Below are positions 13,432-47,850 of a DNA stretch of 64,000 bases, one piece after another (positions within the stretch are counted from its first letter, which is position 1; every line of letters starts with the position of its first letter). Made by a program: the position numbers and the translations under genes. Origin of the DNA: Bacteroidales bacterium (GTDB taxonomy: Bacteria; Bacteroidota; Bacteroidia; Bacteroidales; VadinHA17); contig JBGSLG010000192.1 of assembly GCA_041740815.1 (NCBI GenBank), forward strand, positions 382 through 64,381, read 5' to 3'. The notes below the pieces were generated by a model. The model was not told the DNA's origin and searched no databases. It worked only from the letters and a program-made list of their open reading frames with translations.

Positions 13432-13474
13432 CATGCGAGGCTCACCGGAATCAGAACACAGTTATATGCGAGGC
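13400..13474 (+). repeat. 33-bp tandem repeat, about 2.3 copies, spanning the end of the GH20-like gene and the start of the esterase gene
   Basis: Unit 1 (13400-13432) is ATGAGAGGCTCACCGGAAACAGGACACTTTAAC. Unit 2 (13433-13465) is ATGCGAGGCTCACCGGAATCAGAACACAGTTAT. A partial third unit, ATGCGAGGC, starts at 13466. Confidence 0.85.
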
Positions 13475-14314: not shown

Positions 14315-14324
14315 AACCACAGAC

Positions 14325-15791: not shown

Positions 15792-15800
15792 AAGTAACAG

Positions 15801-17021: not shown

Positions 17022-17046
17022 CCTGATCTTCAGAATCACAATAAAT

Positions 17047-17778: not shown

Positions 17779-17781
17779 ATC

Positions 17782-20128: not shown

Positions 20129-20148
20129 GGGGATTTTTACTTTTCCCT
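20129..20148. repeat. Right copy of the exact 20-nt direct repeat GGGGATTTTTACTTTTCCCT
   Basis: Identical to 2319-2338. It covers, in the same register, the last 3 codons (REK), the TAA stop and 8 nt of 3' flank of the lipoprotein gene 20137-21039. Confidence 0.95.
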
Positions 20149-21039
20149 GTTCATGAATGCATTCCAGACCTCCCCGGTAACCTTTCTCTCCTCAAGCATC
20201 CGGTCAACGATGCCAAGGTTGTGAGCGGCTTTTCTGGCAAGCCCCGTACCCGCGTCAGCAGCCAGTTGCCGGAGTGGCTCGAGGGCATCCTCAGGGCGCC
20301 CGGCAAGTATTGAATTGCTTGTCGCCTTAAGCTGACCACCGGTATAGAGCAGTTCGGTAAAATTCTCAGTGAAAGGATAGTACTTTCCCATGCAGTCCCT
20401 GGCGGATTCTTCCGACAGCGACCTGATCAGGCCATGCCTGCCCGCCAGAGTAGGCCCTCCGATCATGCCGAAGATTGTATATTTCGATTTAACATAGGTA
20501 TATTTTTCTCCTGCACACCTGTCAATAACCTCTCCTTCTGAAGTGTAAATCGTGATGTAAGTATTGGAGAAGAGATAGAAGTCCTTGGTAAGCATTGCAT
20601 CACCCTCATCATCCTCCTCAAGGGAGATCTCCGATTCAATCCATAATCTGATTGAGTCAAGAGCCACCAGCAATCCGGCGTCCTGTTCACGGCATATTGC
20701 CTTTACGGTGTCAGCGAATTCAGGCGCCTGCATTCCCATTACTGTGAACCCGTCCCTCAGTGTATCAGCAATCAGAAATGAGGCCCCCGGATCCTTCAAC
20801 ACCAATTCTCCAAGACCTGCAGCATAACCGTTCACCGCCGCAGCATAGGCGCCCTCATGCTTGTCCTTTATGAATTCGGGTATCCGGTAATCGTAGAAAT
20901 TCACGAATGCAAACTTCTTAAGCTCCGAAGAGAGGACTTGTTCAGGAGGGTAAGTCTTCTGTAACTGGATGGGGGCCGTGCACGATGATGCCAGCGCAAT
21001 GAATAAGATCAGAGACAGTGGCGGAAATACCTGTTTCAT
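20137..21039 (-). CDS. Hypothetical lipoprotein
   Basis: The ORF track gives 20137-21078. I prefer the internal start MKQVFPPLSLILFIALASSC (signal plus lipobox). No family motif recognised. Confidence 0.6.
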   Translation of the reverse strand: MKQVFPPLSLILFIALASSCTAPIQLQKTYPPEQVLSSELKKFAFVNFYDYRIPEFIKDKHEGAYAAAVNGYAAGLGELVLKDPGASFLIADTLRDGFTVMGMQAPEFADTVKAICREQDAGLLVALDSIRLWIESEISLEEDDEGDAMLTKDFYLFSNTYITIYTSEGEVIDRCAGEKYTYVKSKYTIFGMIGGPTLAGRHGLIRSLSEESARDCMGKYYPFTENFTELLYTGGQLKATSNSILAGRPEDALEPLRQLAADAGTGLARKAAHNLGIVDRMLEERKVTGEVWNAFMNREK

Positions 21040-21103
21040 TTTCAGTGATTTTGGTTCAGAACCTGTTACTGAAACCAAAGTTATGCTAAAAAGTCCGACA
21101 TCA

Positions 21104-21142
21104 GAAAAAAAGGGGTGTTCACCGTCAAATGGCGAACACCCC
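21104..21142 (-). terminator. Rho-independent terminator candidate after the BACON-domain gene
   Basis: GGGGTGTTC (21112-21120) pairs with GAACACCCC (21134-21142) around a 13-nt loop. On the minus strand it is followed by a T8 run (A-run 21104-21111). Confidence 0.6.
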
Positions 21143-21169
21143 TGATCTCAAAAACTAACTCTGTAAACT

Positions 21170-22414
21170 CTATAAAACTATCTCGACCTTTATGTCATCG
21201 AGGAAGATTCGGTTTTTGCCGGCACCAACCCCAACCAGGTAGTAGTCATAACCCAGGAACATGATCTGGGTCGCTGAGGTTGCTCCGGTGATTGTGAACG
21301 TACGGGTAGCCACCGGATCGCTCCACATGCCGGTGCAATAGTCGAGGACAGCCCCCGCATCAGCAGGATAGACAGGCCAGTTATCAATTATGAACTGGCT
21401 CTGGCTAATTGTCCCAGGTCCTATTACGCTGACTTTAAGAATATTGTCATCCATTGTGCCTGTGGCAGTCATGTAGGGGATTGCCTTGAAGGTAACATGC
21501 AGGTCTACTGTTCCAACGATCTTACTCAGCACGGGAGAGATGAGGTCACCGCCGTAGCCTGTCTTCCCAAGCTTCACGAATCCCTGCCGGGCATAGAGCA
21601 GCGGAGTGGTACCGCTTCCTGCTGTTGTATTGACAGTGGTAGTCCATCCCTTGTCCTTCTGCTCCTGTGTCCAGTTGTCGTAACGGGTTTCACCTGTGGT
21701 TGTGTAGAACACAGCGTTTCCATATGCCAGCCAGCTGAAGTTTTCCTCAAGGACGACCGTTCCCGGCGACTGAGTAAGGACCACGGTGGCGATGGTAGTG
21801 GGGTAGGCAACCGCCGTCAGTGTCAGTGTCACCTCGCGCGGGTCAATGCTGGTGTTCTCTTCTGCCACGAAAGTGATCTTCTGGGTAGTGACAGACTGTT
21901 CCTGCAGCCATGAATCGTCGCTCAGGGTAGCACCCCATGCCACGTTTGAAACCACGTCGACGGAGAACTCTCCGCCACCGGCAGGTATAGTCACTGCGGC
22001 AGGCAGTGTGATGTAAGGCACGTTTCCCGCCTGGTCAACACGAAAGAGAACGGGCTGTTCTTTGCCGTCAACAATGAATGCATAGTTGGCTATGCGGGCG
22101 TCAAAGGTCTCATTGGCACTGACGATAATCTTGAAGATGCCGTCTGCCTCACCCTTTTCAGGGAAGACCTTGATCCATCCGGCCTCCTCTTTTTCAATAA
22201 TCTCCCATGCTTTATTTGACCGAACCACATAACTCTGTGTCTTGGCGGCCTTCGTAACTGTCAGGCCGGTAGGGCTTCCCTCGATGGAGAAGAAGGGATC
22301 CTCAGGCACTATCTTCTCCTCGCACGAGGTGAAAAGGAATGCGGTAAGGAGGAACAGAGGGATGAACCTCAGCGCCCTGTTCCGTAATCTCAATGTTTTA
22401 TCTTTTTTCATCAC
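21170..22414 (-). CDS. BACON-domain surface lipoprotein (candidate substrate-binding protein of locus 2)
   Basis: Lipobox LFTSC. Two Ig-like BACON-type segments are present (YVVRSNKAWEIIEKEEAGWIKV and FSVDVVSNVAWGATLSDDSWLQ), plus a C-terminal beta-rich domain of about 200 aa. It lies directly downstream of susD. Confidence 0.6.
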   Translation of the reverse strand: MMKKDKTLRLRNRALRFIPLFLLTAFLFTSCEEKIVPEDPFFSIEGSPTGLTVTKAAKTQSYVVRSNKAWEIIEKEEAGWIKVFPEKGEADGIFKIIVSANETFDARIANYAFIVDGKEQPVLFRVDQAGNVPYITLPAAVTIPAGGGEFSVDVVSNVAWGATLSDDSWLQEQSVTTQKITFVAEENTSIDPREVTLTLTAVAYPTTIATVVLTQSPGTVVLEENFSWLAYGNAVFYTTTGETRYDNWTQEQKDKGWTTTVNTTAGSGTTPLLYARQGFVKLGKTGYGGDLISPVLSKIVGTVDLHVTFKAIPYMTATGTMDDNILKVSVIGPGTISQSQFIIDNWPVYPADAGAVLDYCTGMWSDPVATRTFTITGATSATQIMFLGYDYYLVGVGAGKNRIFLDDIKVEIVL

Positions 22415-22430
22415 TTGACTTTTTTGCTTG

Positions 22431-24008
22431 TTATTTACCTCCGGTGATTGCCTCTTTGCTCCACCATACCGGTGTCTTCATATCATTCTCACCACCCATT
22501 TCCTGAAGCGCTGCAGAAGCGTTCGCCCCGTTGGTAAGCATGGTGATGTTCGGGTAACCGAAGCGTGTCGGAAGGATATTGTCATTATAGGTAGTTCCCT
22601 CTCCGATAGTCAGTACAGGGTATCCGGTGCGGCGGTACTCATGGTATGCCTCCATACCCACCCAGAAGAGAGCGAGGTATTTCTGGTTGCCGAGGAATTC
22701 CTCCTTGTTTGCTGCAAGATCCCATGAGCCGAGAGGTGAAGCAAGATAGGTATCAATCTCGGCTGATGTTATTGTAATGGCGGGATCAGAGAATGCTCCC
22801 TGTTCCGACCATTTCTGCATTGATGCCCTTAGGCCGGCCTCATAGTAGCTCTTGGCAGCAGCCTGTCCGCCTGTGATCTGGCCCTTCAGGGCAGCCTCGG
22901 CCAATATGAACTGTATCTCTGCATAATCCATGTAGAATGCCGGAGCATCTCTCCTGCAAAATACCTTGAAATTGAGCCATGAGGTACCCCTGTCCACTTC
23001 GCTTCTGAGAATATCCGTGACTCCTGATACGGTTCCCTTCCAGATGTTGGTAGGGTTGACCTGTGCATTCGGGTTCTTCTTGCCGATGATTGGCAGGCGC
23101 GGGTCCACATAGACCTGGTTGCCGTTGACATCGCTCTGCACGGTCATCTTTATCAGCTGTTCGGTAAGCTTCCTTCCGCTGGAGGTAAACTCGCTCTCGG
23201 TTGTAACCCCGAAGTTGCTGATGTATGGGTCGGTGCCGGAGAACTTTACCGTGGCATTGTCAGCGTTGGATGTGAATACCGGGTATTTGGCCGTGTTATT
23301 TAATATTTCAGCCATCTTAACGCCCACATTCATTTCAGTGCGTCCGCTTACCCTGCTCAGCAATCTGAGATATAGAGAGTTGTTGAACTTCCTCCAGGCC
23401 TCCATATTGCCCCCGTACATGCCATCCATTGAAGGATTGAGAAATACCGGGTTCTCTGCATAGATGTCATTGGCTTTCTCAAGATCGATGAATAAAAATT
23501 CGTAGACTTCCTTCTGCGTGTTGAACGCAGGAGTGAGGGTTCCGCCAGGCTTCCTTGCGGTAAATGCCTCCTCGTATGGTACACTCCCGAACATGTCGGT
23601 CATATTTGCATAGAAGAGCACCTTGAAGGTAAGGGCAATGGCCTCAAGCGATCTGTCTCCGTGTTCTATTGACAGTTCATACATGTGGTCAATGTTCCTG
23701 CCGTAGGTGGCATAGTGGTTCCAGAAGCCGTACCAGTCTCTAGAATCCTCAAGGAAGTACTGATGTTCCCTGCGGGTGACACCGCCCGTGAAGGCAGTGA
23801 ACTGAATAAGCTCATTGTTGTAGTAGTGTGTGCGGTTCAGCCAGTTGTTGGCTGAATTGTAGAGTATGGGTTCGAACAAGCCCGAGGGCTGTATCATACC
23901 CACGAGGGTCCTGTTTGGATTTGTGTTTATCTCCTCGAAGTTGCCGGTGCAGGAGTAGAGTGATCCGAGAACAAGCCCGCAGATGATTAATATTTTCAGT
24001 TTTTTCAT
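22431..24008 (-). CDS. susD: SusD-like (SusD_like_2 type) nutrient-binding lipoprotein
   Basis: Lipobox LGSLYSC followed by the characteristic TGNFEEINTNPN. It is helical and 525 aa, 18 bp after susC. Confidence 0.85.
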   Translation of the reverse strand: MKKLKILIICGLVLGSLYSCTGNFEEINTNPNRTLVGMIQPSGLFEPILYNSANNWLNRTHYYNNELIQFTAFTGGVTRREHQYFLEDSRDWYGFWNHYATYGRNIDHMYELSIEHGDRSLEAIALTFKVLFYANMTDMFGSVPYEEAFTARKPGGTLTPAFNTQKEVYEFLFIDLEKANDIYAENPVFLNPSMDGMYGGNMEAWRKFNNSLYLRLLSRVSGRTEMNVGVKMAEILNNTAKYPVFTSNADNATVKFSGTDPYISNFGVTTESEFTSSGRKLTEQLIKMTVQSDVNGNQVYVDPRLPIIGKKNPNAQVNPTNIWKGTVSGVTDILRSEVDRGTSWLNFKVFCRRDAPAFYMDYAEIQFILAEAALKGQITGGQAAAKSYYEAGLRASMQKWSEQGAFSDPAITITSAEIDTYLASPLGSWDLAANKEEFLGNQKYLALFWVGMEAYHEYRRTGYPVLTIGEGTTYNDNILPTRFGYPNITMLTNGANASAALQEMGGENDMKTPVWWSKEAITGGK

Positions 24009-24026
24009 TTGTCGCCTGTTTATTTA

Positions 24027-27000
24027 TTAGAATGTAAGTCTCAGGTTCATGCCTAATGTGCGTGTCATCGGATATGAGCCTGCCTCTATGCCGTTGAAGA
24101 CATTGGTGCCGGTCATCATACCGCCTTCGGGGTCAAACTGGGGCCACTTGTCCCAGCTGAAGATGTTTGTCGCAAACACAGCGATGCTTGCTCCCTGAAG
24201 TACCTTTGTCTTCTCGCAGAGCGATGAGGGCAGTGCGTACTCGAGACGTGCCTCCTTGAATTTCAGGAAGGATGTTTCGAATGTATGGGCTTCACCGTTG
24301 TAGCGGTCAAGTACCCTGGCCTGGTAGTAGGTATAGATGCTGTTTGTAACTGTATTGTTTGGCTGGCAGACAGCTGTGCCGTCTTCATTTGTCGAGAGCA
24401 CGTTGACGCCCTCTGCAACGATACCGTCATAGCGTCCCTCAAGTGAGTTGGCAAGCTTACCCTGGTAGGAGAGAATACCGTTTGTCACCGAGAACCTGTT
24501 ACCACCCATCTGATATGAGAAGAGTGCACTGAACGAAAGGTTTTTGTACCTGAGTGAGGTGCTGAAACCGCCCCTCCAGTCGGGGTTTACCTTGCCGAGG
24601 AAATGGTCGGCGGTTGACTCAACCGAGGGCAGACCTGTGGTTGCATCAAGGATCACCTGCCCGGAGCAGTCTACCTGGTTCCCGTTGGTGTCAGTGTAAT
24701 ATGAACCCTCCGGCGCTCTCTTGAGAGCGAAACCGTAGAGCTGATGCATCTCCTGCCCGACGTATGAATAGACATGAAGCCTTCCGCCGATTGTCGTTCC
24801 CATGTCGGTCTCTATAGGCTGTGTCGGGTCAATCCTCTCATGCAGGCTTACAAGTGTGTTCTTGTTTTTTGCCCAGTTAAGGCTGATGTCCCAACTGAAG
24901 TCGCTTGTCTTTACCGGTGTTGCATACATTGATATTTCTATGCCCTTGTTGTTGATCTCACCGGCGTTGATATTCATACCTCCCGCTCCGGCTATCGGAT
25001 CGATATCAAGGGAAATAATCTGGTTGGTTGTTGATGAGTTGTATAGTGCAATATCCAGTCCAAGACGGTTCCTGAAGAACTTGGTGTCGAGACCCAGCTC
25101 CCAGCTCTCCACGTTCTCGGGTTTGATCATCGGGTCAGGTATGACTGACGGAAGTGTATAACCTCCGCTGATTGATGCTGCCGAGTAGTACTGGTCAAGC
25201 GAATAGGGGCCGGTGTCATTACCCACGTTGGCCCATGAGAGACGCAGCTTTGCCAGGGAGATTGCCGGCAGGCTGGTGCGCAGGTCGAACATCTGGTCAA
25301 CAAGGACGCTTAGGGCCACTGAGGGATAGAAGTATGACCAGTTGCCCCTGGCCAGTGTGCTGGACCAGTCGTTGCGGCCCGTAATGTCAAGGTAAAAAGT
25401 GTCATCCCATCCGAGGGTGGTGAATCCGTAGAGGCTGTTGACCATCTTGTAGCTCCTGTAGCTTGAAGGATCAGGATAGATACCTGTCGGGACGTTTGCA
25501 ATATGATAAACGCCGTCAATGTCAAGCTCATCAAGCTGCACGCCGGTGCTCCTGTAGTGGTAGCTCATGTTGTTACCCCCGAAGGCAGTGGTGGTGGTAA
25601 GCCTTCCACCAAGGAAGTTGCGTTGATACCGCAGAAGGAAGTCACTGTTGGCTTCGAAGTTGGTAAAGCCCTGTTCGCGGTAGAATCCGTTTTCCCATCC
25701 GAAGGTCATCTTGGGTTTCCTCTGGGTGCGGAACTCGTTACTGAAGTCCATACCAGTCCTGAGATCAAGGGTGAGCCCCTTGGCCACGTTGATTGTGAAG
25801 CCCACGGTCCCGAAGACCCTGTCCTTGTCGGTTGAGTTGAGCTCCTCGTACAGTACCCTGTAGGGGTTGTATGAGCCGGTACCTGCGAAGACAAGACTGT
25901 TGCCGCCCTCTGAGATTGTGGCATTACGGTTGATTGAAGTGAACCTGCCCTCAAAGTACTCGTTCCTCCAGTCGCTCATTGAATTCGAGTTATAGCCCCA
26001 CATCAGGTCATACATGACCGTGGTCTGGTGATACCCGGCCATCGGCATGTTGTCACTGTCAGTGTGGTAGTAGTTCACCTTCGTCTTGAACTCGATCCAT
26101 TTATTGACCGGGGTCTCAAACGAAAATGCGTATGCCTGTTTCTCGAACCCGGTGTTGGGAAGAATCCATTTGTTGCGGGTATCGGTTACCGAGAAGCGTA
26201 TGTTCTGACCTTCGCCGTTGCTGCCGCTGATGGCCACAGAGTTGTTGTATGTCACGCCATTCTGGAAGATGCCTGTGAACCAGTCGTCCTTGTATACGAA
26301 CGGGGTTTTGACGATTTCGCCGGTCTCCCAGTTCTTTCCCTCATACTGGTAGCGGAGCTTGTCTGCGCTGAACTCCTCCCCCCATGCATAGCGCGAGATG
26401 TTTCTCGGGGGATAGTCAGTTGTACCGACCAGGCTGGGGTCAAGTGTCCAGAAGTTGTATTCTTCGATTCCCATGTCTGAGCCCGATCCGAATTGAGTCT
26501 GGAAATCGGGCCAGTATCCAGCCTTCTCCACCACCACGGATGAGTTGACGGTGACGCCTATACCTTTGGATTTGCGTCCGGACTTCGTTGTTATGACGAT
26601 GGCGCCGTTGGCTGCCCGCGATCCGTAGAGCGCTGTTGCGGCCGGACCCTTAAGCACAGACACCGATTCAATGTCCTCGGGGTTGATGTCACTGGCACCG
26701 TTGCCGTAGTCAACGGGGAAGTCGGATCCGGAGTTGGTATAACTGCTGCTTGATGATGTAGCCGTTGTTCCTGATCTGACAGGGACTCCGTCAATTATGA
26801 AGAGAGCCTCGTTTTTGCCGTAGTTAAGTGAGGCGTCGCCGCGGAGGGTCACACGCATTGAGCTTATCGGGCCTGAGCTGGCACTGTTGAATGTAAGACC
26901 TGCCACCTTGCCTGCCATACCGTTGAGCCAGTTGGTAGCAACCACCTGGGTCAGTTCTTCGCCGCCCACCCGGCTTACAGCATATCCTAGCGATTTCTCC

Positions 27001-27359
27001 TCACGTGTAAGGCCAAGAGCCGTCACAACTACTGCTGACACCTCTATCGCCTCTTCCTGAAGAGTAACGTTTATAACACTCATGGTACCGACAGGTATCT
27101 CCTGCTTCACATATCCAAGGAACTGCACCTCAATGACAGGGTTGGTCCCCGTCACCCTGATGGAATAAGCACCATTACTGTCGGTGCTTGTACCCATGGC
27201 AGTGCCCTGGAGCACAACGGTAGCACCGAACACCGGGGTGACACCGTCAGGCTCAAACACTTTACCTGTCACCTGCCTCTCCTGAGCCATCACCGGCAAC
27301 ATGACCAGTGCCATCAGGAATGTGGCAAGAACAATCTTAAGAGCTGGTTTGAATTTCAT
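24027..27359 (-). CDS. susC: SusC/RagA-family TonB-dependent transporter (no STN domain)
   Basis: 1110 aa. N-domain VTGKVFEPDGVTPVFGATVVLQGTAMGTSTDSNGAY; plug ALFIIDGVP and IESVSVLKGPAATALYGSRAANGAIVITTKSG; barrel ending LRLTF. Confidence 0.95.
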   Translation of the reverse strand: MKFKPALKIVLATFLMALVMLPVMAQERQVTGKVFEPDGVTPVFGATVVLQGTAMGTSTDSNGAYSIRVTGTNPVIEVQFLGYVKQEIPVGTMSVINVTLQEEAIEVSAVVVTALGLTREEKSLGYAVSRVGGEELTQVVATNWLNGMAGKVAGLTFNSASSGPISSMRVTLRGDASLNYGKNEALFIIDGVPVRSGTTATSSSSSYTNSGSDFPVDYGNGASDINPEDIESVSVLKGPAATALYGSRAANGAIVITTKSGRKSKGIGVTVNSSVVVEKAGYWPDFQTQFGSGSDMGIEEYNFWTLDPSLVGTTDYPPRNISRYAWGEEFSADKLRYQYEGKNWETGEIVKTPFVYKDDWFTGIFQNGVTYNNSVAISGSNGEGQNIRFSVTDTRNKWILPNTGFEKQAYAFSFETPVNKWIEFKTKVNYYHTDSDNMPMAGYHQTTVMYDLMWGYNSNSMSDWRNEYFEGRFTSINRNATISEGGNSLVFAGTGSYNPYRVLYEELNSTDKDRVFGTVGFTINVAKGLTLDLRTGMDFSNEFRTQRKPKMTFGWENGFYREQGFTNFEANSDFLLRYQRNFLGGRLTTTTAFGGNNMSYHYRSTGVQLDELDIDGVYHIANVPTGIYPDPSSYRSYKMVNSLYGFTTLGWDDTFYLDITGRNDWSSTLARGNWSYFYPSVALSVLVDQMFDLRTSLPAISLAKLRLSWANVGNDTGPYSLDQYYSAASISGGYTLPSVIPDPMIKPENVESWELGLDTKFFRNRLGLDIALYNSSTTNQIISLDIDPIAGAGGMNINAGEINNKGIEISMYATPVKTSDFSWDISLNWAKNKNTLVSLHERIDPTQPIETDMGTTIGGRLHVYSYVGQEMHQLYGFALKRAPEGSYYTDTNGNQVDCSGQVILDATTGLPSVESTADHFLGKVNPDWRGGFSTSLRYKNLSFSALFSYQMGGNRFSVTNGILSYQGKLANSLEGRYDGIVAEGVNVLSTNEDGTAVCQPNNTVTNSIYTYYQARVLDRYNGEAHTFETSFLKFKEARLEYALPSSLCEKTKVLQGASIAVFATNIFSWDKWPQFDPEGGMMTGTNVFNGIEAGSYPMTRTLGMNLRLTF

Positions 27360-27392
27360 AGGTTAGTTGGTTTTAAGTTATTTATATTTAGG

Positions 27393-29342: not shown

Positions 29343-29355
29343 GCATTCTGTTTTA

Positions 29356-30543: not shown

Positions 30544-30546
30544 GTA

Positions 30547-31476: not shown

Positions 31477-31488
31477 ATTTTTCAGTTA

Positions 31489-32940: not shown

Positions 32941-33054
32941 AGGGTCACAGGTTGGGTTATTGGCTTTTCATGATTCCGGGGCCAAATATTATCATTCTTT
33001 GTTTTCTTCAGTTCTTTTAGTGATTAAGATAATGTTAAATCTTGCTACCACCGG

Positions 33055-34821: not shown

Positions 34822-34930
34822 ATTCGATATTACTGATTGGCTCTTCTGTTGATCATTGTCATTTCATTTCCTGCGAACGGGCTGGATGGTTGTGTCATTT
34901 CACGGACCTCAGTCACCTTCGTCCACTACT

Positions 34931-36502
34931 TCATGCCATCACATAGGCACTGGCCATCTCCGTGTACTCCTTAACCTGATCCTGCTCCCATTTCTTGTCT
35001 CTGCCCAGTTCGGATGCGAGGACGGATGCGACTCTCGGAGCCAGGGCTATTGATGCTCTCGCATCAAGATAAAGGACGCGCACCCTGCGTGCAAGAACAT
35101 CATCAACGGTTCTTGCCATCTCTCTTCGCACTGCCCAGACCACTTCACCGACGGTAAAGTCAGTGGTTTGGTCAAGCTTCTCGGCGTAGTACGGATTCTC
35201 GCTCTGCATCTTAAGTATCGCTGCCTGGTCGCTGCCGTAAATATACATCCTGTCGTTCCTGTCAGGGTTCTCGAAGTAACCGTGTATCTTCAGTTTTGCG
35301 GTACGGCATTCCTTTACCGGCAGTTTTTTTGTCCTGACAGCAGTATTGACGGTATCCTCAGCCATCTTTCTGTAGGTGGTCCATTTGCCACCTGTGATGG
35401 TTACCAGGCCTGAGGGGGAGACAAGCATCTTGTGACTCCGTGAGATCTCTTTGGTTTTGTCACTGTCACTGCCGTTCTTTGGCGCCGCAAGGGGCCTCAG
35501 GCCTGCAAAGACGCAAAGCACATCACTGCGCTGCGGTTTCTTCTCCAGGAAGCGGCCTGCGGTCTCCAGTATGAAATCGACCTCCTCTTCCAGTGCTTTG
35601 GGTTCCAGGACAAACTCTTTGACGGGTATGTCGGTCGTTCCCAGTATGACGCGGTTGTGCCACGGTACCCCGAACATTACCCTGCCGTCACTTGTCTTGG
35701 GGATCATGATTGCATCGTCGCCCCCGAGGAAGCTTTTATCTACCACAAGGTGTACTCCCTGGCTGGGCCTGACGAGCGGTTTCTCGGACGGATTATCCAT
35801 CCTTATTATATTGTCGACGAAGATGCCTGTGGCATTGATGATGCATTTTCCTTCCGCCGTGAAGTTCACCCCGTCGAGTTCATCCCTGACCATGACGCCC
35901 GATATCTGGCCGTCTGAGCTCTTGAGCAGCTGTGTTACCTTTACATAGTTTACAACCGCGGCTCCCTGTTCGATGGCTGTCTGCATCAGGTTGACAGCCA
36001 GCCGTGAGTCGTCAAACTGTCCGTCGTGGTAGACCACACCGCCCCTCAGGTTTTCGCGGACAATGCGGGGTATTGACTTTATCACGGCGGCCCTGCTCAT
36101 TGGCAGCGAGCGCCCGAGGCTCATCCCTCCGGAGAGAAGATCGTAGAAGGTAAGGCCGATTGTATAGAAGGGCTTCTCCCACCACCTGTAGTTGCCGATA
36201 ATGAATCGCTGGTTCTTCACCAGGTGCGGTGCATTCTTTTGAAGGTAGCCTCGCTCACGCAGCGCCTCGCGCACCAGTGCCACATCGCCCTTCTGCAGGT
36301 ATCGCACCCCGCCGTGGACCAGTTTTGTGCTGCGCGATGAGGTGGCCTTGGCAAAATCCGACTGTTCAAGCAGTAGCGTGCTGTAACCCCTTGATGCGGA
36401 ATCAACGGCAATGCCCAGTCCGGTAGCGCCACCACCTATAATAATGAAGTCCCACTTCTGATTTGAGTCCTTCAGCCCGCGCAAAAAATCTTCTCTTTCC
36501 AA
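34931..36502 (-). CDS. glpD: FAD-dependent glycerol-3-phosphate dehydrogenase
   Basis: FAD-binding FIIIGGGATGLGIAVD. TSSRSTKLVHGGVRYL matches E. coli GlpD (TSSASSKLIHGGLRYL). 523 aa. Confidence 0.9.
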   Translation of the reverse strand: MEREDFLRGLKDSNQKWDFIIIGGGATGLGIAVDSASRGYSTLLLEQSDFAKATSSRSTKLVHGGVRYLQKGDVALVREALRERGYLQKNAPHLVKNQRFIIGNYRWWEKPFYTIGLTFYDLLSGGMSLGRSLPMSRAAVIKSIPRIVRENLRGGVVYHDGQFDDSRLAVNLMQTAIEQGAAVVNYVKVTQLLKSSDGQISGVMVRDELDGVNFTAEGKCIINATGIFVDNIIRMDNPSEKPLVRPSQGVHLVVDKSFLGGDDAIMIPKTSDGRVMFGVPWHNRVILGTTDIPVKEFVLEPKALEEEVDFILETAGRFLEKKPQRSDVLCVFAGLRPLAAPKNGSDSDKTKEISRSHKMLVSPSGLVTITGGKWTTYRKMAEDTVNTAVRTKKLPVKECRTAKLKIHGYFENPDRNDRMYIYGSDQAAILKMQSENPYYAEKLDQTTDFTVGEVVWAVRREMARTVDDVLARRVRVLYLDARASIALAPRVASVLASELGRDKKWEQDQVKEYTEMASAYVMA

Positions 36503-36706
36503 TGTAGTAAAGCCTTAAATATGATTTTTGTCAGAAAACAGAGTAAAAATATTACAACCTTTTTTGATATCAAAACAAAAAAGAAAGAAAATGTAACAAA
36601 ACGCAAGATTTTTATCTTTTTTAAGGATTCCGATTGCTTGCCAGGAATTACAATTATTGTTATCTTTGGTTAGTCATCAATAAATCCGGCTTGCGGTAAG
36701 GGAATC

Positions 36707-37471
36707 ATGAGAAACATCGCTCAGCGCCATAAGATAATACTTGCTGAACTTGAGAAGGATGGTTATGTGAGGGTCCGTGACCTCAGCGAACGGCTGGAGG
36801 TTTCGGAAGTTACGATTCGAAAGGATCTGAAAGAACTTGAGGAAAGGAGGATGCTGATCCGTACCCACGGCAGCGCAAGCCCCGTCAGCCCTCTGACAAT
36901 CGACCGCCATATTGATGAGAAGGAGAAAGTCCAGGTCAATGAAAAGACGAGGATTGCGGAAGCCGCTAACAGGTTGCTGCAAAAGAATGACAGGATTATC
37001 ATAGCCTCCGGAACAACTGTCCTGACCTTTGCCCAGAAGATGACAATCACCGATCCTATTACCGTAATCACTCCCTCGGTCAAGGTCTCGCTGATATTGA
37101 GCTACAAGCCGAACATTGACATTATCCAGCTCGGGGGATCACTGCGCAAAAGCTCTGCCTCGGTCATCGGTCCGTATGCCGAGAGCCTTCTTACCGAGAT
37201 GATGTGCAGCAAGCTCTTCATAGGAGTAGACGGGCTCGATCTGGACCTTGGACTCACAACCAGCAATATAGCCGAGGCTCACCTCAATCATTACATGCTG
37301 AACGCTGCGCAGGAGGTGATAGTTCTGGCTGACTCAACCAAGTTCGGCAAACGGGGATTCGGGAAGATCTGCAATCTTAACAAGGTGCACCATATAATCA
37401 CTGACAGGAATGCCCCTGCAAATATCATCCAGATCATCAGGGAAAAAGGTATCGAGGTCACACTTGTATAA
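36707..37471 (+). CDS. DeoR-family transcriptional regulator, GlpR-like by context
   Basis: HTH ILAELEKDGYVRVRDLSERLEVSEVTIRKDLKELE followed by a DeoR C-terminal sensor domain (IIASGTTV, FIGVDGLD). It is divergent from glpD across a 204-bp intergenic region. Confidence 0.85.
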   Translation: MRNIAQRHKIILAELEKDGYVRVRDLSERLEVSEVTIRKDLKELEERRMLIRTHGSASPVSPLTIDRHIDEKEKVQVNEKTRIAEAANRLLQKNDRIIIASGTTVLTFAQKMTITDPITVITPSVKVSLILSYKPNIDIIQLGGSLRKSSASVIGPYAESLLTEMMCSKLFIGVDGLDLDLGLTTSNIAEAHLNHYMLNAAQEVIVLADSTKFGKRGFGKICNLNKVHHIITDRNAPANIIQIIREKGIEVTLV

Positions 37472-37571
37472 TATGTATTGTACTATTTCTGAAGATTATT
37501 GAACCTGACCGGGTGCCACCTGATCAGGTTATTTAAATTTGTATTTACCGACACCATAAATAGTAATCATC

Positions 37572-40358
37572 ATGCCAGTAAAATCACCACTATCGGTTAT
37601 CGCAGCATTGCTGGCGGTAATGCTTGCCGGATGTTCAACCTCCAAAACTGCAGTTACGGGAGACCCTTCCGGCCGAACAGCAGGGGCCGAGAGGGAGTTT
37701 CGTGCAGCGTGGGTGGCCACCGTTGCCAACATCAACTGGCCCAGCAAACCGGGTCTCTCCGTTGAGGAGCAGAAGAGCGAAGCCTTAGCACTGCTGGATC
37801 TGCTATATAAAAACAACTTCAATGCAGTTGTATTCCAGGTGAGACCTCACGGTGACGCTATGTACAGGAGCGACCTCGAGCCATGGTCATATTACCTTAC
37901 CGGTGAAGCAGGCAAAGCCCCGGATCCTTATTATGATCCTCTGCAGTTCTGGATTGATGAGGCACATGCCAGGGGCATCGAGCTGCACGCCTGGCTTAAT
38001 CCCTATCGTGCTCATCATCCCGCAGCAGGAGAGGTGACCGATGCTTCCATCGTCAGGACACGCCCTGACCTGGTCCTGAAACTCGATGTCGAGAACTACT
38101 GGTGGATGGACCCGGCCCTGAAGGGCACACAGGATCACTCATACAATGTGGTGATGGACCTTGTACGCAGGTACGACCTTGACGGAATCCATTTCGACGA
38201 CTACTTCTATCCCTATCCCGACTATAACAATTTCAAGGATTTCCCGGATGACAAGAGCTGGCAGGCATACCAGGCCGGCGGCGGCAAGCTATCACGTTCC
38301 GACTGGAGGAGGGACGCCGTCAATGTATTTATTGAGAGACTCTATAAGGGCATCAAGGCTGAGAAGCCATGGGTGAAATTCGGACTCAGCCCCTTCGGCA
38401 TATGGCAGCCCTTTAACCCTCCTGCCATCGGAGGCGGATTCAACCAGCACGAGACCCTCTATGCCGATGCAAAGCTGTGGCTCAACAAGGGGTGGATCGA
38501 CTATTACTCGCCGCAGCTTTACTGGCCGGTAAACCAGATAGCCCAGAGCTACCCGGTGCTGCTGGGTTGGTGGAAGGAACAGAACCTGAAGGGACGTCAC
38601 CTGTGGCCGGGAATCAGCATAGGGCTGCAGCCTGTATCAAGGGCTGCCGATGAGACCGTCAACCAGATCATGATCACCAGGGGTCTTCTTCCGGAGAGCC
38701 CGGGAGTGGTGCACTGGAGCATCGGCCCGCTGGCAAGCTCACCTGAGCTGGTGAAAGCTATTGCCGAAGGCCCATACAGGAGAAAGGCCCTGGTGCCTCC
38801 CTCACCATGGCTCGATACAAATGCGCCTGCTGCACCCGGAGTGACAACCAAGGCTGAGGACGGCCGACTGCTTGTCTCATGGACTCATCCAAACCCTTCT
38901 GAGGTGGGCCGCTGGGTGGTCTATTACCGGTATGGCTCACAGTGGAACCAGAACATCCACGGAAATAGTGTCACAGATGATGCAATCCCTGCCTTCATCC
39001 CCAACCGTACTTTCCTTGCACGCACACCGCGTGAAAATGTTAAAAGCGGCGGGCAGGCGCTCATACGCCTTGACAGCATCGGTGTATCGGCTGTGGACCG
39101 TTTCGGGAATGAGAGTATGATAAAGAAGATGGCGGTGACGGAGTTCACTGTTGCCGACGCGCCTCCGTTGGAGGGAGTGCTGGCGGAGTACTATGACGGC
39201 ATGAAGCGACCGCCGGTACCGATGCCAGCCGTGACCCCCGGCATAAATGTGCTCATTGATGAACATCTTGACCTGATCAGGGGCAAGAGGGTAGGCCTGA
39301 TAACCAACCCGTCGGCTGTCGGAGCTGACATGAGAAGCGTGGTTGACATTCTCGCATCCACAGAAGGTGTAAATCTGGTGGCTCTGTTTGGCGCTGAGCA
39401 CGGCGTGCGTGGTGCTCTGCAAGGCAGGATATCCGGTGAGGGTGAACCTGATCCGGTGACAGGCATACCGGTTTACAGCCTGTACGGCGACTCGTGGGCT
39501 CCGAAACAGGAGTGGCTCGACAGCCTCGACGTGATGCTGTTCGACATCCAGGGAGTGGGCTCGGCATGGTACACATTCAAGTTCTCGATGTCGTGGGCCA
39601 TGGAAGCATGCGCCAAATCCGGCATCCCCTTCATCGTCCTTGACAGGCCCAACCCGCTTGGTGGCCGCGTGGTTGAGGGACCAATGCATGACACAATAAG
39701 TATATACAGGCACCGGCTGCCGCTGCGCCACGGAATGACCTACGGCGAGCTCGCAACGATGTGGAATGAGACAGAAGGCTACGGCGCTGACCTGACAGTC
39801 ATTAAGATGAAAGGGTGGCGGCGCAGCATGATGTGGGATGCAACAGGAATGATGTGGGTGATGCCATCACCGAATATTGACAACTGGGAGACAGCGGTTG
39901 TCTATCCGGGACAGTGCCTCTTCGAGAGAACCAATATGTCGGAAGGAAGGGGCATCACCAAGCCTTTCCTGATTACCGGAGCACCCTGGGTCAATGCCGA
40001 AAAAGCTGCCGATGATCTTAACTCAAGGGGAATAAGCGGAGCATGGTTCAGACCGGTGTACTTCATTCCCCGCTCTGCCGGGACAGGCAATACCCGCAGA
40101 AATAAGCCATGGAACGAGATGTGCGGTGGTGTTGAGATAATGCTTACTGACCCCGCCGCATTCCGGTCAGTGGAAGCATCACTCCATATTATTGACGCAT
40201 ACAGGAAGACCAGTCCGGATTCACTGGTATGGTCGCCGCCGCTGTTGATGCGGCAGCTCAACGAACCAGGCGTCACCGTGGAAGAGGTGGTGAAAGCCTG
40301 CCAGGATGATGTTAGTGAGTTCATGGAAGTAAGACAGAAATACCTGCTGTACAGATGA
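37572..40358 (+). CDS. Fusion lipoprotein: GHL10 (DUF187/YngK-like) glycosyl-hydrolase-like domain plus DUF1343/NamZ-type exo-beta-N-acetylmuramidase domain
   Basis: Lipobox VMLAGCS. The N-half carries EFRAAWVATVANINWPS, IELHAWLNPYR and GIHFDDYFYP. The C-half, from about 39235, carries KRVGLITNPSAVG, LFGAEHG, FDIQGVGSAWYTF and VLDRPNPLGG, as I remember them from YbbC/NamZ proteins. Confidence 0.75.
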   Translation: MPVKSPLSVIAALLAVMLAGCSTSKTAVTGDPSGRTAGAEREFRAAWVATVANINWPSKPGLSVEEQKSEALALLDLLYKNNFNAVVFQVRPHGDAMYRSDLEPWSYYLTGEAGKAPDPYYDPLQFWIDEAHARGIELHAWLNPYRAHHPAAGEVTDASIVRTRPDLVLKLDVENYWWMDPALKGTQDHSYNVVMDLVRRYDLDGIHFDDYFYPYPDYNNFKDFPDDKSWQAYQAGGGKLSRSDWRRDAVNVFIERLYKGIKAEKPWVKFGLSPFGIWQPFNPPAIGGGFNQHETLYADAKLWLNKGWIDYYSPQLYWPVNQIAQSYPVLLGWWKEQNLKGRHLWPGISIGLQPVSRAADETVNQIMITRGLLPESPGVVHWSIGPLASSPELVKAIAEGPYRRKALVPPSPWLDTNAPAAPGVTTKAEDGRLLVSWTHPNPSEVGRWVVYYRYGSQWNQNIHGNSVTDDAIPAFIPNRTFLARTPRENVKSGGQALIRLDSIGVSAVDRFGNESMIKKMAVTEFTVADAPPLEGVLAEYYDGMKRPPVPMPAVTPGINVLIDEHLDLIRGKRVGLITNPSAVGADMRSVVDILASTEGVNLVALFGAEHGVRGALQGRISGEGEPDPVTGIPVYSLYGDSWAPKQEWLDSLDVMLFDIQGVGSAWYTFKFSMSWAMEACAKSGIPFIVLDRPNPLGGRVVEGPMHDTISIYRHRLPLRHGMTYGELATMWNETEGYGADLTVIKMKGWRRSMMWDATGMMWVMPSPNIDNWETAVVYPGQCLFERTNMSEGRGITKPFLITGAPWVNAEKAADDLNSRGISGAWFRPVYFIPRSAGTGNTRRNKPWNEMCGGVEIMLTDPAAFRSVEASLHIIDAYRKTSPDSLVWSPPLLMRQLNEPGVTVEEVVKACQDDVSEFMEVRQKYLLYR

Positions 40359-42466
40359 GAAGATATAAAATATTACTGCTACTGGCAGCGGCTGCGCTGG
40401 CTGGATGCAGTACGGCCAGAAAGACACAGGAGACCGCGGTTACAGAACCCCCGGTTCCTGCCCTGGCGGAAAGTCATAAGAAACCGCAGGTTGTTGAACT
40501 TGACCTGACGGCCCTGTTTGACACTGTCAGTTCAGGTCGGAAGGTTTCTCTCAATAAAGGGGCCATGGTACTGACAACTGACAGTGAAGGCATAATTACC
40601 TTTGCGATGCCTGAGAAAGACACCCTTATACTGTCGCCTGATCCGTGTCCGGGGCTTAAGTCGCCCTGCAGCTTTGTCATCCCCCTGGCGGGATGGTTCG
40701 TTCCTTACAGTTATTCAGTTAAGCCCGACGGCACGGTGGAACGCAAATCGCCCTGGGTAGAGTTTCGCAGGACACCGGAGCCGGTAACAAACCAGTCCCA
40801 GTTCGATTTTCTCTGCAAGAGCGAGTACCCTGCCACAGTTAGTATTAACGGAACTGAAGTGAAGCAGTATAAGACTGGCATCTTCTTCAGTACGGTTAAG
40901 TTCACTGAGGGAGTCAACAGGGTGAGGGCAGAAGCAACTTATCCCGATGGCCGGACAGCCTCGCATGAGATGGAATTTGTATATGAGAAGAGGGACCTGA
41001 GCAGGCAGCCATACCCGCTCTGGATAGACAGGCGTTCGTTTGAGCCGGCTGCCGACGTGGTGCTGCTTCCCGGCGAGGTGGTGAAGGTCAGCTTTCGCGC
41101 TTCGAAGGGGCAGGAGGCCTGGCTGGATATCAGGCCCGGGAAGAGAACCCTGAAGTGCAGCCGTGAGGACTTTGACGACTACAGTGTCTACCGGGCCGAA
41201 CTGCCTGTGCGTGGCTTTGAGGATGGCTCTGTCACTACCCTCAGCGTCAGGCTGGTGCCGGCAGCAGGCGCGCCGGTGAGGGATTCATACAGGCCTGACA
41301 TTGCAAGAACAGTCACAGTGAAAAATCCGGAAGAGTTTCCACTTTTAAGAGTGAAAAACGAGTATTCCAGGCTGGTATACAACCTGGGTGCACCCAGGCT
41401 GGGCGGCCCTGTGAGATCAGAGCTAGTGCCCGGCGTGATACTCAAGTCCAGCGGGAAAATCGGTCGCAACTACAGGATCAGGCTGAGCAACACCGAGACA
41501 GGGTTCATCAGTGAGGATGATGTTGAGGTAATTTCCGGTAGCACGGTTCAGCCTCTATACAGTGTGACAAGCATGTCATGCGGTCCGGCTGCCGGCGCTG
41601 ATATCGTCTCAATACCCTGGCTCGAGTCGGTACCCTACGAGGTATTCCCTGATCCCGATGGTAAAAGACTTGTAGTAACACTCTTCGGCGTTGAGTCGGC
41701 GGCCACATGGGTCAGTCACAGGACCGGCTGCGAGGTTGTTGACAAGCTCACCTGGGAGCAGACCTCACCTGAGACCTTTCGGGTTTATGTGAACCTGAAG
41801 ACGGAAAACATATGGGGTTATGACATCAGACCGGTTGGCAGGAGCCTCGTGCTGCGCATCAAGTACCCGCCTGCATATGACCTTGCAGCTGAGAAGCCAC
41901 TCACCGGACTGAAGATTGCCATTGAGGCCGGTCATGGCGGGTCCGGCACCGGGGCCATCGGACTATCAGGACTGGTTGAGAAGGATATCAATCTTGACCT
42001 CTCATTCAGGCTGGGGGAGTTGTGTGCATCGATGGGGGCTGAGGTGCTGCAGGTTCGTGATTCTGACAGGGATATGGGGTTGATAGAGAAGCGGAGTATT
42101 GCCATTGAATCCGGAGCTGATATGCTGATAAGCATTCATGCCAATGCCGGCGGCAGGGGTTATCTCTCTGTGGCTGGTACTAGCACCTACTGGCACAATC
42201 CCTTCTGGGCTCCTCTGGCACAGACCATCTATGAAAGGCTGCTTGAGACCGGGCTTCCGGAGTTTGGTGTTGTGGGTTCATTTAACTACACCGTGACCAG
42301 GGCATCGCAGATGCCTGCCGTGCTGGTGGAGCAGGCCTTCATGACCCATGCCGAAGACGAGGAGAAGCTCGCAGATCCCGTCTTCCGCCAGCTGATGGCA
42401 GAGAAGATCTGTGCGGGGGTGCTTGATTACCTGGGCAACCTTAAAAGCCGGGAATCAGATTTATAG
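40355..42466 (+). CDS. N-acetylmuramoyl-L-alanine amidase (Amidase_3) lipoprotein with an N-terminal region of about 500 aa and unknown function
   Basis: Lipobox ALAGCST. The start codon overlaps the upstream stop (ATGA at 40355-40358). The C-terminal amidase motifs are KIAIEAGHGG, DMLISIHANA and PAVLVEQAFMTH. Confidence 0.85.
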   Translation: MRRYKILLLLAAAALAGCSTARKTQETAVTEPPVPALAESHKKPQVVELDLTALFDTVSSGRKVSLNKGAMVLTTDSEGIITFAMPEKDTLILSPDPCPGLKSPCSFVIPLAGWFVPYSYSVKPDGTVERKSPWVEFRRTPEPVTNQSQFDFLCKSEYPATVSINGTEVKQYKTGIFFSTVKFTEGVNRVRAEATYPDGRTASHEMEFVYEKRDLSRQPYPLWIDRRSFEPAADVVLLPGEVVKVSFRASKGQEAWLDIRPGKRTLKCSREDFDDYSVYRAELPVRGFEDGSVTTLSVRLVPAAGAPVRDSYRPDIARTVTVKNPEEFPLLRVKNEYSRLVYNLGAPRLGGPVRSELVPGVILKSSGKIGRNYRIRLSNTETGFISEDDVEVISGSTVQPLYSVTSMSCGPAAGADIVSIPWLESVPYEVFPDPDGKRLVVTLFGVESAATWVSHRTGCEVVDKLTWEQTSPETFRVYVNLKTENIWGYDIRPVGRSLVLRIKYPPAYDLAAEKPLTGLKIAIEAGHGGSGTGAIGLSGLVEKDINLDLSFRLGELCASMGAEVLQVRDSDRDMGLIEKRSIAIESGADMLISIHANAGGRGYLSVAGTSTYWHNPFWAPLAQTIYERLLETGLPEFGVVGSFNYTVTRASQMPAVLVEQAFMTHAEDEEKLADPVFRQLMAEKICAGVLDYLGNLKSRESDL

Positions 42467-43152: not shown

Positions 43153-43217
43153 AATTCCCGGATCACACTAAGGGTACTGCCTTGTTTTTTGTTCACACAT
43201 TATAGAGAGAGATTATT

Positions 43218-44327: not shown

Positions 44328-44497
44328 ATCTTATAAACCCTAAACCAACCTAACCTCCATGCCTATGACATAATCAAAAAGAAAAAGGACCGGATCATGC
44401 GCCAACATTACCGGTCCCAGTCTGATGTTAATAACCCATATCCTGTCTTGAATGAACCGGGGTATGAATTGAACTAACATTAAAACCCTACAAAACT

Positions 44498-47839: not shown

Positions 47840-47850
47840 AACTATCAGAT

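Follow-up and report, generated by a model that had tools for sequence, protein, structure and literature searches.

The window analysed in this work, a 64,000-nt stretch of contig JBGSLG010000192.1 of a Bacteroidales bacterium (assembly GCA_041740815.1), carries in its part 20137-42466 a glycerol-phosphate (glp) locus with a SusC/SusD-type importer (SusCD), a DeoR-family regulator and, next to it, a gene pair encoding a GHL10-NamZ fusion and an N-acetylmuramoyl-L-alanine amidase. The first-pass annotation had interpreted this block as one combined island for scavenging the Gram-positive cell envelope. Our analysis makes it probable that the block comprises two separable units, whose adjacency has been inherited within one clade of uncultured environmental Bacteroidales. 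Unit A (20137-37471) would be a glp regulon with a SusCD front end, in which GlpR is divergent from a 10-gene array, and Unit B (37534-42466) would be an operon of two genes that has a -7 promoter box to itself. The predicted module activities and the SusCD and glycerol-3-phosphate (G3P) genes proposed earlier are retained here, and the linkage proved to be conserved in relatives; the notion of one functional or regulatory island is not retained, owing to the promoter box of NamZ, the hairpin in front of it, the separability of the modules and the affiliation of DeoR with the glp side. The domain content of the genes, the synteny patterns, the promoter box and the hairpin are established.

Gene content and survey of relatives

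Domain calls were based on the list of open reading frames (ORFs) and on Pfam and NCBIfam scans of the window proteins; N-terminal lipoprotein boxes and signal peptides were read by eye. A scan of the NamZ fusion against one genome per species yielded 33 full-fusion loci (76-93 % identity) and 47 further loci matching the GHL10 half only. The full-fusion loci belong to metagenome-assembled genomes (MAGs) of uncultured Bacteroidales, whose record titles name biofilm, bioreactor and other environmental samples. A DeoR-anchored scan of metagenomes added 51 loci, and all window proteins were mapped to the loci by tblastn. L-numbers and P0240 below are labels of relatives' loci or contigs. The features of the block are as follows.

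20137-21078, minus strand: weak DUF6340-like lipoprotein, last gene of the array (19.8 bits, below cutoff; lipobox ASSC)
21170-22414, minus strand: BACON-domain lipoprotein, putatively at the surface, candidate substrate-binding protein (PF13004, 42.7 bits)
22431-24008, minus strand: SusD-like outer-membrane lipoprotein (SusD-like_2, 260.7 bits)
24027-27359, minus strand: SusC-like TonB-dependent transporter (Plug and CarboxypepD_reg)
27393-29432, minus strand: calcineurin-like metallophosphoesterase (MPE) lipoprotein, ORF (MetallophosN/Metallophos/MetallophosC)
29356-30543, minus strand: GlpQ-like glycerophosphodiester phosphodiesterase (GDPD) lipoprotein (GDPD, 79.9 bits)
30547-31476, minus strand: secreted HAD-IB phosphatase (Pfam HAD; signal peptide ending AQ)
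31489-32940, minus strand: GlpT-type G3P:phosphate antiporter of the MFS (TIGR00712, 526.8 bits)
33055-34821, minus strand: S1 formylglycine sulfatase lipoprotein, accessory gene (Sulfatase and SGSH_C; CSPSR)
34931-36502, minus strand: GlpD, FAD-dependent G3P dehydrogenase, first gene of the array (DAO and DAO_C)
36503-36706, no strand: divergent glpD/glpR control region, 204 bp (alignment of 26 relatives)
36707-37471, plus strand: DeoR-family regulator, assigned as GlpR (HTH_DeoR and DeoRC)
37502-37530, plus strand: terminator-like hairpin and T-rich run after glpR (dG -15.5 kcal/mol, z -3.9 versus shuffles)
37534-37541, plus strand: TAAATTTG, Bacteroidetes-type -7 promoter box of the NamZ operon, conserved in relatives
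37572-40358, plus strand: GHL10 + NamZ_N + NamZ_C fusion lipoprotein, 928 aa (199.8, 231 and 121.9 bits, respectively)
40355-42466, plus strand: N-acetylmuramoyl-L-alanine amidase lipoprotein, 703 aa, with C-terminal Amidase_3 (PF01520, 114 bits)

The minus-strand array, running from 36502 to 20137, consists of 10 co-directional genes separated by 3-114 bp. Lipoprotein boxes are present in GDPD, MPE, the sulfatase, the NamZ fusion, the amidase, the BACON protein and SusD, and a signal peptide in the HAD phosphatase. The genes named in the first-pass annotation were all found in place with the domains ascribed to them; the domain scans confirmed the SusCD importer and the genes of G3P catabolism, both modules do encode proteins with export signals at their N-termini, and the gap between DeoR and NamZ is exactly 100 bp on one strand. 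The sulfatase, the HAD phosphatase and the BACON and DUF6340 lipoproteins had not been mentioned there.

The regulator belongs to the glycerol-phosphate side

Family models alone leave the identity of the regulator ambiguous, as the AgaR model scored highest (222.6 bits, cutoff 260), with 178 bits for haloarchaeal GlpR and 116.9 bits for E. coli DeoR/GlpR, and it is by gene context that the protein was assigned to the GlpR type. Its orthologues (70-99 % identity) adjoin glpD in 36 of 38 informative loci. When the DeoR-anchored survey was split by identity, GlpD was present in the locus in 20/20 cases at 85-100 %, 8/8 at 75-85 % and 8/10 at 65-75 %, and the NamZ fusion followed downstream in 16/18, 0/7 and 0/11 cases; that is, on metagenome contigs the fusion accompanies DeoR of at least 85 % identity in 16 of 18 and less similar DeoR in none of 18.

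Orthologues at 70-80 % identity also occur in other families of Bacteroidales, where their neighbours are glpD, glpT, MPE-SusC genes or glpK-glpF, NamZ and the amidase never being among them. In Proteiniphilum the order is DeoR-GlpD-GlpT-phosphate porin-MPE-SusC; in Mariniphaga an MPE-SusC-SusD-BACON set lies 4 kb from the DeoR orthologue; in one 7.4-Mb genome GlpT-GlpD is divergent from DeoR, which is followed by unrelated genes. In L110, L122 and L133, glpK (FGGY, 810 bits, above cutoff) stands directly after DeoR at a distance of 25-43 bp without a promoter box, and GlpF comes next in L110 and L122. Linkage of a DeoR-family repressor to glpD, glpT and glpK, characteristic of a glp regulon, is thereby seen across genomes. 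Since outside the clade the orthologues sit with glp genes and not with peptidoglycan genes, DeoR belongs to the glp side.

Separate control signals upstream of NamZ

In the glpD/glpR region, the alignment of 26 relatives revealed two conserved blocks (36529-36549 and 36571-36591), the conservation being of clade level, and the -7 box of glpR, TATCTTTG, lies at 36661-36668. TTCGAAA(C)/AACGnAA-like words recur in the glpD-glpR intergenic regions of the window and of L084, L111, L113, L116, L118, L122, L128 and L129. The conserved blocks and the TTCGAAA-like words are candidate GlpR operators. The blocks occur once in the window, with no second copy upstream of NamZ; the TTCGAAA-like words are absent from 37472-37571, which is a weak negative, since the true GlpR operator is not identified. 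With both kinds of element missing upstream of NamZ, an operator shared by the two units was rejected, on this weak ground. In L020, deoR and NamZ have a copy of the glpD/glpR control block between them.

The Bacteroidetes -7 promoter consensus is TAnnTTTG, and the box upstream of NamZ matches it. In an 85-nt upstream alignment the box appears as TA[AT]ATTTG in 25 of 26 relatives, 28-31 nt before the NamZ ATG in 23 of them, and it is kept in L014 and L033, both of which have no DeoR. Upstream of the box, most relatives possess a hairpin and a T-run; from sub-clade to sub-clade the stem varies in sequence but remains paired. As the pairing outlasts the stem sequence, the hairpin appears terminator-like rather than operator-like. 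By its sequence, the stretch 36707-42466 does not look like a single operon or regulon, which should have no internal promoter or terminator and be inherited as a whole. A sigma-70 promoter/terminator scan, ill-suited to promoters of Bacteroidota, gave no information, and the hairpin escaped its terminator rule; Rfam and tRNA scans of the window found nothing, neither a riboswitch nor an integration-site signal at the junctions.

The DeoR-NamZ spacer varies from 96 to 1185 bp across relatives, and in many of them it measures 220-1185 bp and contains tandem arrays with units of 7, 53 and 57 bp. This spacer is a hotspot of tandem repeats: a 53-bp unit in 4.4 copies, a 57-bp unit in 10.1 copies and the heptamers ACTGCCA/TTGCCTA in about 10 copies were recorded, with repeats at 10762-11870 of L132 and also upstream of the NamZ start in L007, L010, L017, L022, L025 and L032. 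The 100-bp spacer of the window has no tandem repeats.

Adjacency and separability of the two units in relatives

Of the 29 species-level relatives whose upstream DNA is visible, 25 have DeoR adjoining the NamZ fusion and 28 have some glp gene at that place. The module adjacency recurs in about 30 related species. The pair comes after DeoR in one shallow clade only, and the modules separate in both directions. In L087 and L020, the closest relatives with enough downstream DNA (NamZ 92 % and DeoR 98 % identical, the L020 DeoR being partial), the order is glpD/DeoR-NamZ-Amid-GlpK-GlpF (the slash marks the divergent junction), so that the linkage is tighter there than was visible to the first-pass annotation. 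All five plus-strand genes are seen at 2861-10883 of L087; L020 (1-7489) begins inside DeoR. Direct search detected glpK downstream of the amidase in these two loci and in L138 (NamZ-Amid-GlpK, 7208-13955) only, and no match to glpK-glpF was obtained in the window. In relatives, a gene cluster that follows the amidase was considered as glpK and rejected, as Pfam identified it as class II aldolase.

Comparison of the outgroup order DeoR-GlpK-GlpF with the order in L087 and L020 leads to the simplest history: at the base of the clade, insertion of a two-gene cassette with its own promoter would have parted glpR from glpKF, and the latter genes would have been lost afterwards in most lineages of the clade, including that of the window.

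Each unit also exists without the other. DeoR is present without the NamZ-amidase pair in L110, L122, L128, L130 and L133, and in the first four of these, all of them metagenome lineages, the complete set SusC-MPE-GDPD-HAD-GlpT-(sulfatase)-GlpD/DeoR is found; much of the locus is found in Proteiniphilum as well. The pair without DeoR occurs in L014, L015, L021, L033, L137 and L138. Beside the pair, the glp locus is reduced to GDPD alone in L015, to GDPD-GlpD-DeoR in L016, to GDPD-HAD-GlpT-GlpD in L021, where DeoR is gone, and to the DUF6340 gene or a GlpD fragment in L014 and L033; L137 and the P0240 contig hold the pair in glp-free contexts, and L138 keeps only glpK. L090 (1-4161) displays the 3' end of the amidase, then glpD and deoR fragments, then a full deoR.

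Farther afield, nine Ignavibacteriota loci without glp genes have GHL10 followed by a protein homologous to the long amidase (42-49 % identity). In Flexithrix dorotheae and a Saprospiraceae MAG (L034, 9905-14008; L035, 9941-14008), again without glp genes, GHL10 and the amidase are united in one ORF of about 1355 aa. This fusion, along with the adjacency in L037-L049, is a Rosetta-stone link of a denuded-glycan hydrolase to an amidase. In the Melioribacter MAG L038 (9977-19196), genes for a BcrAD_BadFG-type kinase, an MFS permease and an NlpC/P60+SH3 peptidase come after the pair, and upstream of it a second GHL10 protein with a type IX secretion tail is encoded beside a hybrid sensor kinase; the ensemble resembles a peptidoglycan salvage cluster.

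Directly after the amidase, murA (minus strand) and murB (plus strand) are located in 12 relatives (L010, L002, L004, L011, L014, L017, L018, L025, L026, L028, L104 and L107), and murB only in L031 and L092; they pass the NCBIfam cutoffs in L010 (14894-17331) and were recognized by tblastn elsewhere. Having murA/murB, the relatives make their own MurNAc and are not MurNAc auxotrophs. Since these genes are equally near the pair, neighbourhood logic would tie it to murA/murB just as well as to the glp genes. The window carries a different insertion where the relatives have murA/murB.

Predicted functions of the glycerol-phosphate locus

The genes of SusC and the SusD-like_2 protein lie 18 bp apart inside the 10-gene array, in the manner of a polysaccharide utilization locus, and Metallophos, GDPD and HAD genes flank them, which is the gene content of Pus-type loci; the Pfam scan found no glycoside hydrolase within 20137-36502. 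The closest solved relatives of GDPD are the GlpQ enzymes of S. aureus and B. subtilis (2OOG, 5T91), which match its N-terminal 110 aa only, and the scans of window ORFs revealed no PhoD domain. For the HAD phosphatase, the TIGR01490/01488 matches are below their cutoffs; the top NCBIfam matches of GlpT (glpT, 526.8 bits) and GlpD (glycerol-3-phosphate dehydrogenase, 287.6 bits) also stay below the cutoffs of 632.55 and 360, the DAO_C domain being present in the latter.

The probable real start of MPE is M31 at 29342, which abolishes the overlap with the GDPD ORF; a sequence search gave no match of this protein among solved structures. Acidic residues follow the lipobox in MPE (C-K-E-D) and in the BACON protein (C-E-E-K), which weakly suggests that both are surface-exposed. 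MPE is linked to SusC and GlpD/DeoR in Proteiniphilum and Mariniphaga, SusC orthologues (68-91 % identity) adjoin the MPE gene in L026, L028, L098, L099, L110, L122 and L130, the BACON gene comes after SusD in Mariniphaga L081, and the DUF6340 homologue is still beside the NamZ fusion in L014, L033 and L138.

The sulfatase (218 bits with Sulfatase) carries the S1 formylglycine motif CSPSR at residues 88-92 and has arylsulfatases 7ALL (6e-117) and 1HDH as its closest structures; it is missing in seven close relatives (L002, L009, L019, L021, L026, L028 and L031). In this phosphodiester locus it may act as a promiscuous phosphodiesterase or simply be a passenger.

From these data we infer activities, localization, regulation and order of events as follows. 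Unit A would combine the glpTQ-glpD logic under GlpR with an added outer-membrane front end: the surface BACON protein and MPE would bind and cut glycerol-phosphate-containing phosphodiesters, SusCD would bring the fragments in, the GlpQ-like GDPD and the HAD phosphatase would free sn-glycerol-3-phosphate and phosphate in the periplasm, and G3P would be taken up by GlpT and oxidized to dihydroxyacetone phosphate (DHAP) by GlpD, its presence lifting repression by GlpR. Two candidates are conceivable as substrates, namely deacylated phospholipid head groups and poly(glycerol phosphate) polymers; the sequences are compatible with both. The GlpR-type regulator together with G3P catabolism suggests use of carbon as well as phosphorus.

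Predicted functions of the peptidoglycan pair

The NamZ and amidase ORFs share 4 bp (ATGA). The GHL10 half of the fusion (PF02638, 199.8 bits) matches Cwp19 (PDB 5OQ2) at 1.7e-68 over residues 32-397, and the NamZ half contains the two domains of family GH171, NamZ_N and NamZ_C, both above cutoffs, and matches the B. fragilis structures 4K05 (1.9e-65) and 4JJA. The protein is predicted to join a Cwp19/DigH-type glycan hydrolase to a GH171 NamZ exo-N-acetylmuramidase. In the structure model of the second protein (pLDDT 77), about five beta-sandwich domains precede a compact Amidase_3 domain; Foldseek retrieved AmiC, AmiC2cat, CwlV and LytH, with TM scores of 0.73-0.78 to the last three. H527, E542, H595 and E659 are invariant in 21 amidase homologues, as expected of Amidase_3, and presumably represent the zinc ligands and the catalytic Glu. 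The catalytic domain of about 175 aa aligns end to end with CwlV, 5EMI and 4RN7; for AmiA, AmiB and AmiC the alignment covers no more than the first ~80 residues or breaks into two pieces, and their auto-inhibitory helix insert has no counterpart in the window amidase. The fold search with the N-terminal part returned only generic Ig-like/beta-sandwich matches, from which no specific binding function could be assigned; this module makes up a small family of 447 clusters among 1.84 billion representatives, in proteins of 570-1355 aa.

The residues after the lipobox Cys are non-acidic in both the NamZ fusion (C-S-T-S-K) and the amidase (C-S-T-A-R), so that the two lipoproteins probably face the periplasm rather than the surface, and it is there that Unit B would work. 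The GC content at third codon positions (GC3) is 0.62-0.63 in NamZ and the amidase versus 0.59-0.65 in the glp genes; this composition bears no sign of recent foreign origin of the pair.

As the GHL10-NamZ fusion and the GHL10-amidase fusion (L034, L035) connect all three activities, these are likely to act sequentially on one substrate. The amidase would strip the stem peptides, the GHL10 half would cut the denuded glycan strands, and the NamZ half would remove MurNAc from the new non-reducing ends, with GlcNAc removal left to GH20 enzymes encoded elsewhere. Such an order is consistent with the cutting of denuded strands by GHL10 enzymes such as Cwp19 and DigH (PMC12288456) and with the action of NamZ on peptide-free glycans, from which it removes terminal MurNAc (PMC8054146; bioRxiv 10.1101/2021.12.02.470905). 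Unit B would serve wall-turnover fragments or imported muropeptides, not intact foreign cells.

Surrounding DNA

Upstream of the block, Locus 1 (3789-20109) comprises SusCD, two GH20 genes, NagA, NagB, a sodium symporter and a LacI regulator, in agreement with the first-pass annotation as to the two GH20 genes and the NagA-like and NagB-like genes, and also encodes a SASA-type esterase, a heparinase II/III-like lyase and a fasciclin protein. At 17047-17778 a 243-aa lipoprotein without a Pfam match is encoded, whose segment EEIDIEFS resembles the GH16 catalytic motif ExDxE; minus-strand homologues of it adjoin glpK in L133 and L138. In L015, L016 and L033, where the glp locus is reduced, the GH20/NagA block of Locus 1 lies within 0.4-3.5 kb of the NamZ pair.

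Downstream of the amidase, relatives have a nitroreductase, a PHO4 transporter, a binding protein and FecCD, corresponding to 57188-63361 of the window. The intervening part of the window, 42565-57088, encodes an ECF sigma factor, a FecR anti-sigma factor, SusC with an STN domain, SusD, a carboxylesterase, two YdjC proteins, one unidentified gene and DUF5916. Its GC3 is 0.43-0.52 versus 0.59-0.65 in the glp genes, and L030 is the only relative in which its 5' part (from ECF to the esterase, the limit of the 10-kb flank) comes after the amidase; the block was probably inserted recently. As the whole region is a syntenic backbone modified by gains and losses of DNA, no selection need be invoked to explain why close relatives retain the glp-NamZ junction.

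Weighing of the alternative explanations

Several observations weigh against the separation of the two units. In L087 and L020 glpK starts 53 bp after the amidase, and in L138 8 bp after it, with no -7 box in any of the three, so that peptidoglycan and glycerol genes are probably co-transcribed there. Some relatives have only a weak hairpin (z above -1 in 7 of 25), and readthrough from glpR or control of the namZ promoter by GlpR is possible. The linkage of glp genes and pair has lasted through about 30 species, L015 has retained GDPD, and nothing but GDPD, beside the pair, and L129 (1-6250) presents a second arrangement, NamZ-Amid (917 aa) followed by GlpD (minus strand) divergent from DeoR. 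The periplasmic orientation of the pair, lastly, is supported solely by the residues after the lipobox.

The same linkage is an argument for one necromass island, induced by G3P via GlpR, that would strip teichoic acid and peptidoglycan from Gram-positive debris and feed G3P, glycerol and amino sugars into catabolism. The pair is embedded on one strand between glpR and glpK-glpF in L087 and L020, with glpK directly after it in L138; the adjacency holds in 25/29 species and 16/18 contigs, and L129 keeps the neighbourhood in another order. Judging by N-terminal sequences, all the enzymes are exported; the closest solved relatives of GDPD are Gram-positive GlpQ enzymes, reported to degrade teichoic acid (PMC7086022), and record titles place the relatives in digesters, sludge and sediments, where necromass is food (PMC7511781). 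Nevertheless, we consider this explanation unlikely. NamZ is preceded by a promoter box of its own and by a hairpin, the glpD/glpR control blocks and TTCGAAA-like words are not found in front of it, and the spacer is variable and repeat-filled. The modules part in both directions, glpK-glpF and parts of the glp locus were lost repeatedly with the pair staying, and murA/murB are equally near in 12 relatives. Further, the sulfatase would not be needed for teichoic acid, and the pair is devoid of acidic surface-export residues. Nothing among our sequence and comparative tests points specifically to Gram-positive walls. The stronger form of this idea, that the cassette was captured into a G3P/glycerol-responsive operon so that glycerol phosphate from teichoic or lipoteichoic acid switches on peptidoglycan dismantling, seems to us rather improbable; a capture of this kind would be a dedicated regulon for dead Gram-positive walls, the first described for a SusCD-type system, and we grant that extension the same slight probability.

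It is very doubtful that the pair is tied instead to the LacI-type Locus 1 in salvage of peptidoglycan or amino-sugar glycans, with an unrelated glp locus in between. Products of NamZ need a beta-hexosaminidase and NagA/NagB, which Locus 1 possesses, the GH20/NagA block approaches the pair in the three relatives mentioned, and amiE, nagZ and namZ of B. subtilis share one operon (PMC8054146). Yet the heparinase II/III-like lyase, the fasciclin protein and the SASA esterase indicate another glycan, no MurQ, MurK or MurT-type gene was found among the window ORFs scanned, distant GHL10-amidase pairs are not beside GH20 (weak GH20-like matches were obtained only in L044, L053 and L061, where the amidase is absent), and the adjacency is explained by synteny alike.

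Pure housekeeping, that is, daughter-cell separation and recycling of the cell's own wall as by E. coli AmiA/B/C and DigH, with no nutritional role, is equally hard to credit: conservation of the GHL10-amidase pairing across phyla, murA/murB right after the amidase in 12 relatives (murB in two more), the periplasm-facing type of the lipoprotein N-termini and the specificity of DigH for denuded glycans at the septum (PMC12288456) would agree with it, but the compact 175-aa catalytic domain has no AmiA/B/C auto-inhibitory insert, absence of the pair between DeoR and glpK in L133 and outgroups means that it is dispensable at this site at least, and the genes that accompany the pair in Melioribacter, for a sugar kinase, a permease and an NlpC/P60 peptidase, give a salvage-like picture.

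Comparison with known systems

Under the explanation we favour, two separable units, each unit has its own set of counterparts. Unit A resembles the E. coli glp regulon in the DeoR-family regulator divergent from glpD, in the GlpT-type antiporter and the GlpQ-type GDPD and, in outgroup relatives, in glpK-glpF directly after the regulator. It differs in that the window array adds SusC/SusD, BACON, DUF6340, MetallophosN/C, HAD and sulfatase genes, in that the window has no glpK-glpF, and in that the regulator scores higher with the AgaR and SrlR models than with that of E. coli GlpR. It is also similar to the PusCD clusters of Flavobacterium, where SusCD is combined with phosphodiesterases, including a calcineurin-like one, and phosphomonoesterases, and not with carbohydrate-active enzymes, lipid head groups being the proposed substrates (Lidbury et al., 2020, PMC8115612). 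In contrast to those clusters, which are defined by induction upon phosphate depletion, the window locus has a regulator of the GlpR type, not PhoB, and includes G3P catabolism (GlpT, GlpD). The secreted GDPD, with its nearest solved relatives, recalls teichoic-acid degradation by GlpQ (with PhoD) in B. subtilis and S. aureus (PMC7086022), but no more than the first 110 residues align, PhoD was not found, and the host is Gram-negative with SusCD import.

Unit B, with NamZ (GH171) beside an amidase, is reminiscent of murQ-murR-murP-amiE-nagZ-namZ of B. subtilis and of the T. forsythia NamZ1 cluster, where NamZ accompanies a MurNAc-L-Ala amidase (PMC8054146; bioRxiv 10.1101/2021.12.02.470905). 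In the window, by contrast, NamZ is fused to GHL10, and the amidase is an Amidase_3 protein with about five beta-sandwich domains. AmiE belongs to another amidase family than Amidase_3. The window operon has no MurQ, MurP/MurT, MurK or NagZ, and relatives have murA/murB. The scheme in which an Amidase_3 enzyme denudes the glycan and a GHL10-family enzyme cuts it is that of E. coli AmiA/B/C and DigH and of C. difficile Cwp19 (PMC12288456; PDB 5OQ2); in contrast, the window genes are physically coupled, and fused in Saprospiraceae and Flexithrix, the exo-muramidase is in the same polypeptide, and the regulatory helix insert is absent. The literature searched contained no Bacteroidota locus demonstrated to use teichoic acid or peptidoglycan.

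Implications

The most interesting details are the GHL10-NamZ and GHL10-amidase fusions and the cassette insertion, the loci being otherwise ordinary. The observations call for caution in deducing function from adjacency in genomes dense with utilization loci, as in relatives the pair has glp genes on one side and murA/murB on the other. If the combined island were true after all, it would provide a genetic handle on necromass recycling by anaerobic Bacteroidales, necromass being a large pool of carbon and phosphorus in digesters and sediments.

Taken together, the results assign a widely conserved DeoR regulator of Bacteroidales to a glp regulon that gained a SusCD importer, and extend the Pus-type organophosphate loci to a G3P-catabolic, GlpR-linked form. 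They also delineate GHL10 and the long multi-domain Amidase_3 protein, joined by NamZ in this clade, as a coupled module, adjacent or fused, across Bacteroidota and Ignavibacteriota, and this module offers a candidate for the missing amidase step in the salvage of peptidoglycan by Bacteroidota.

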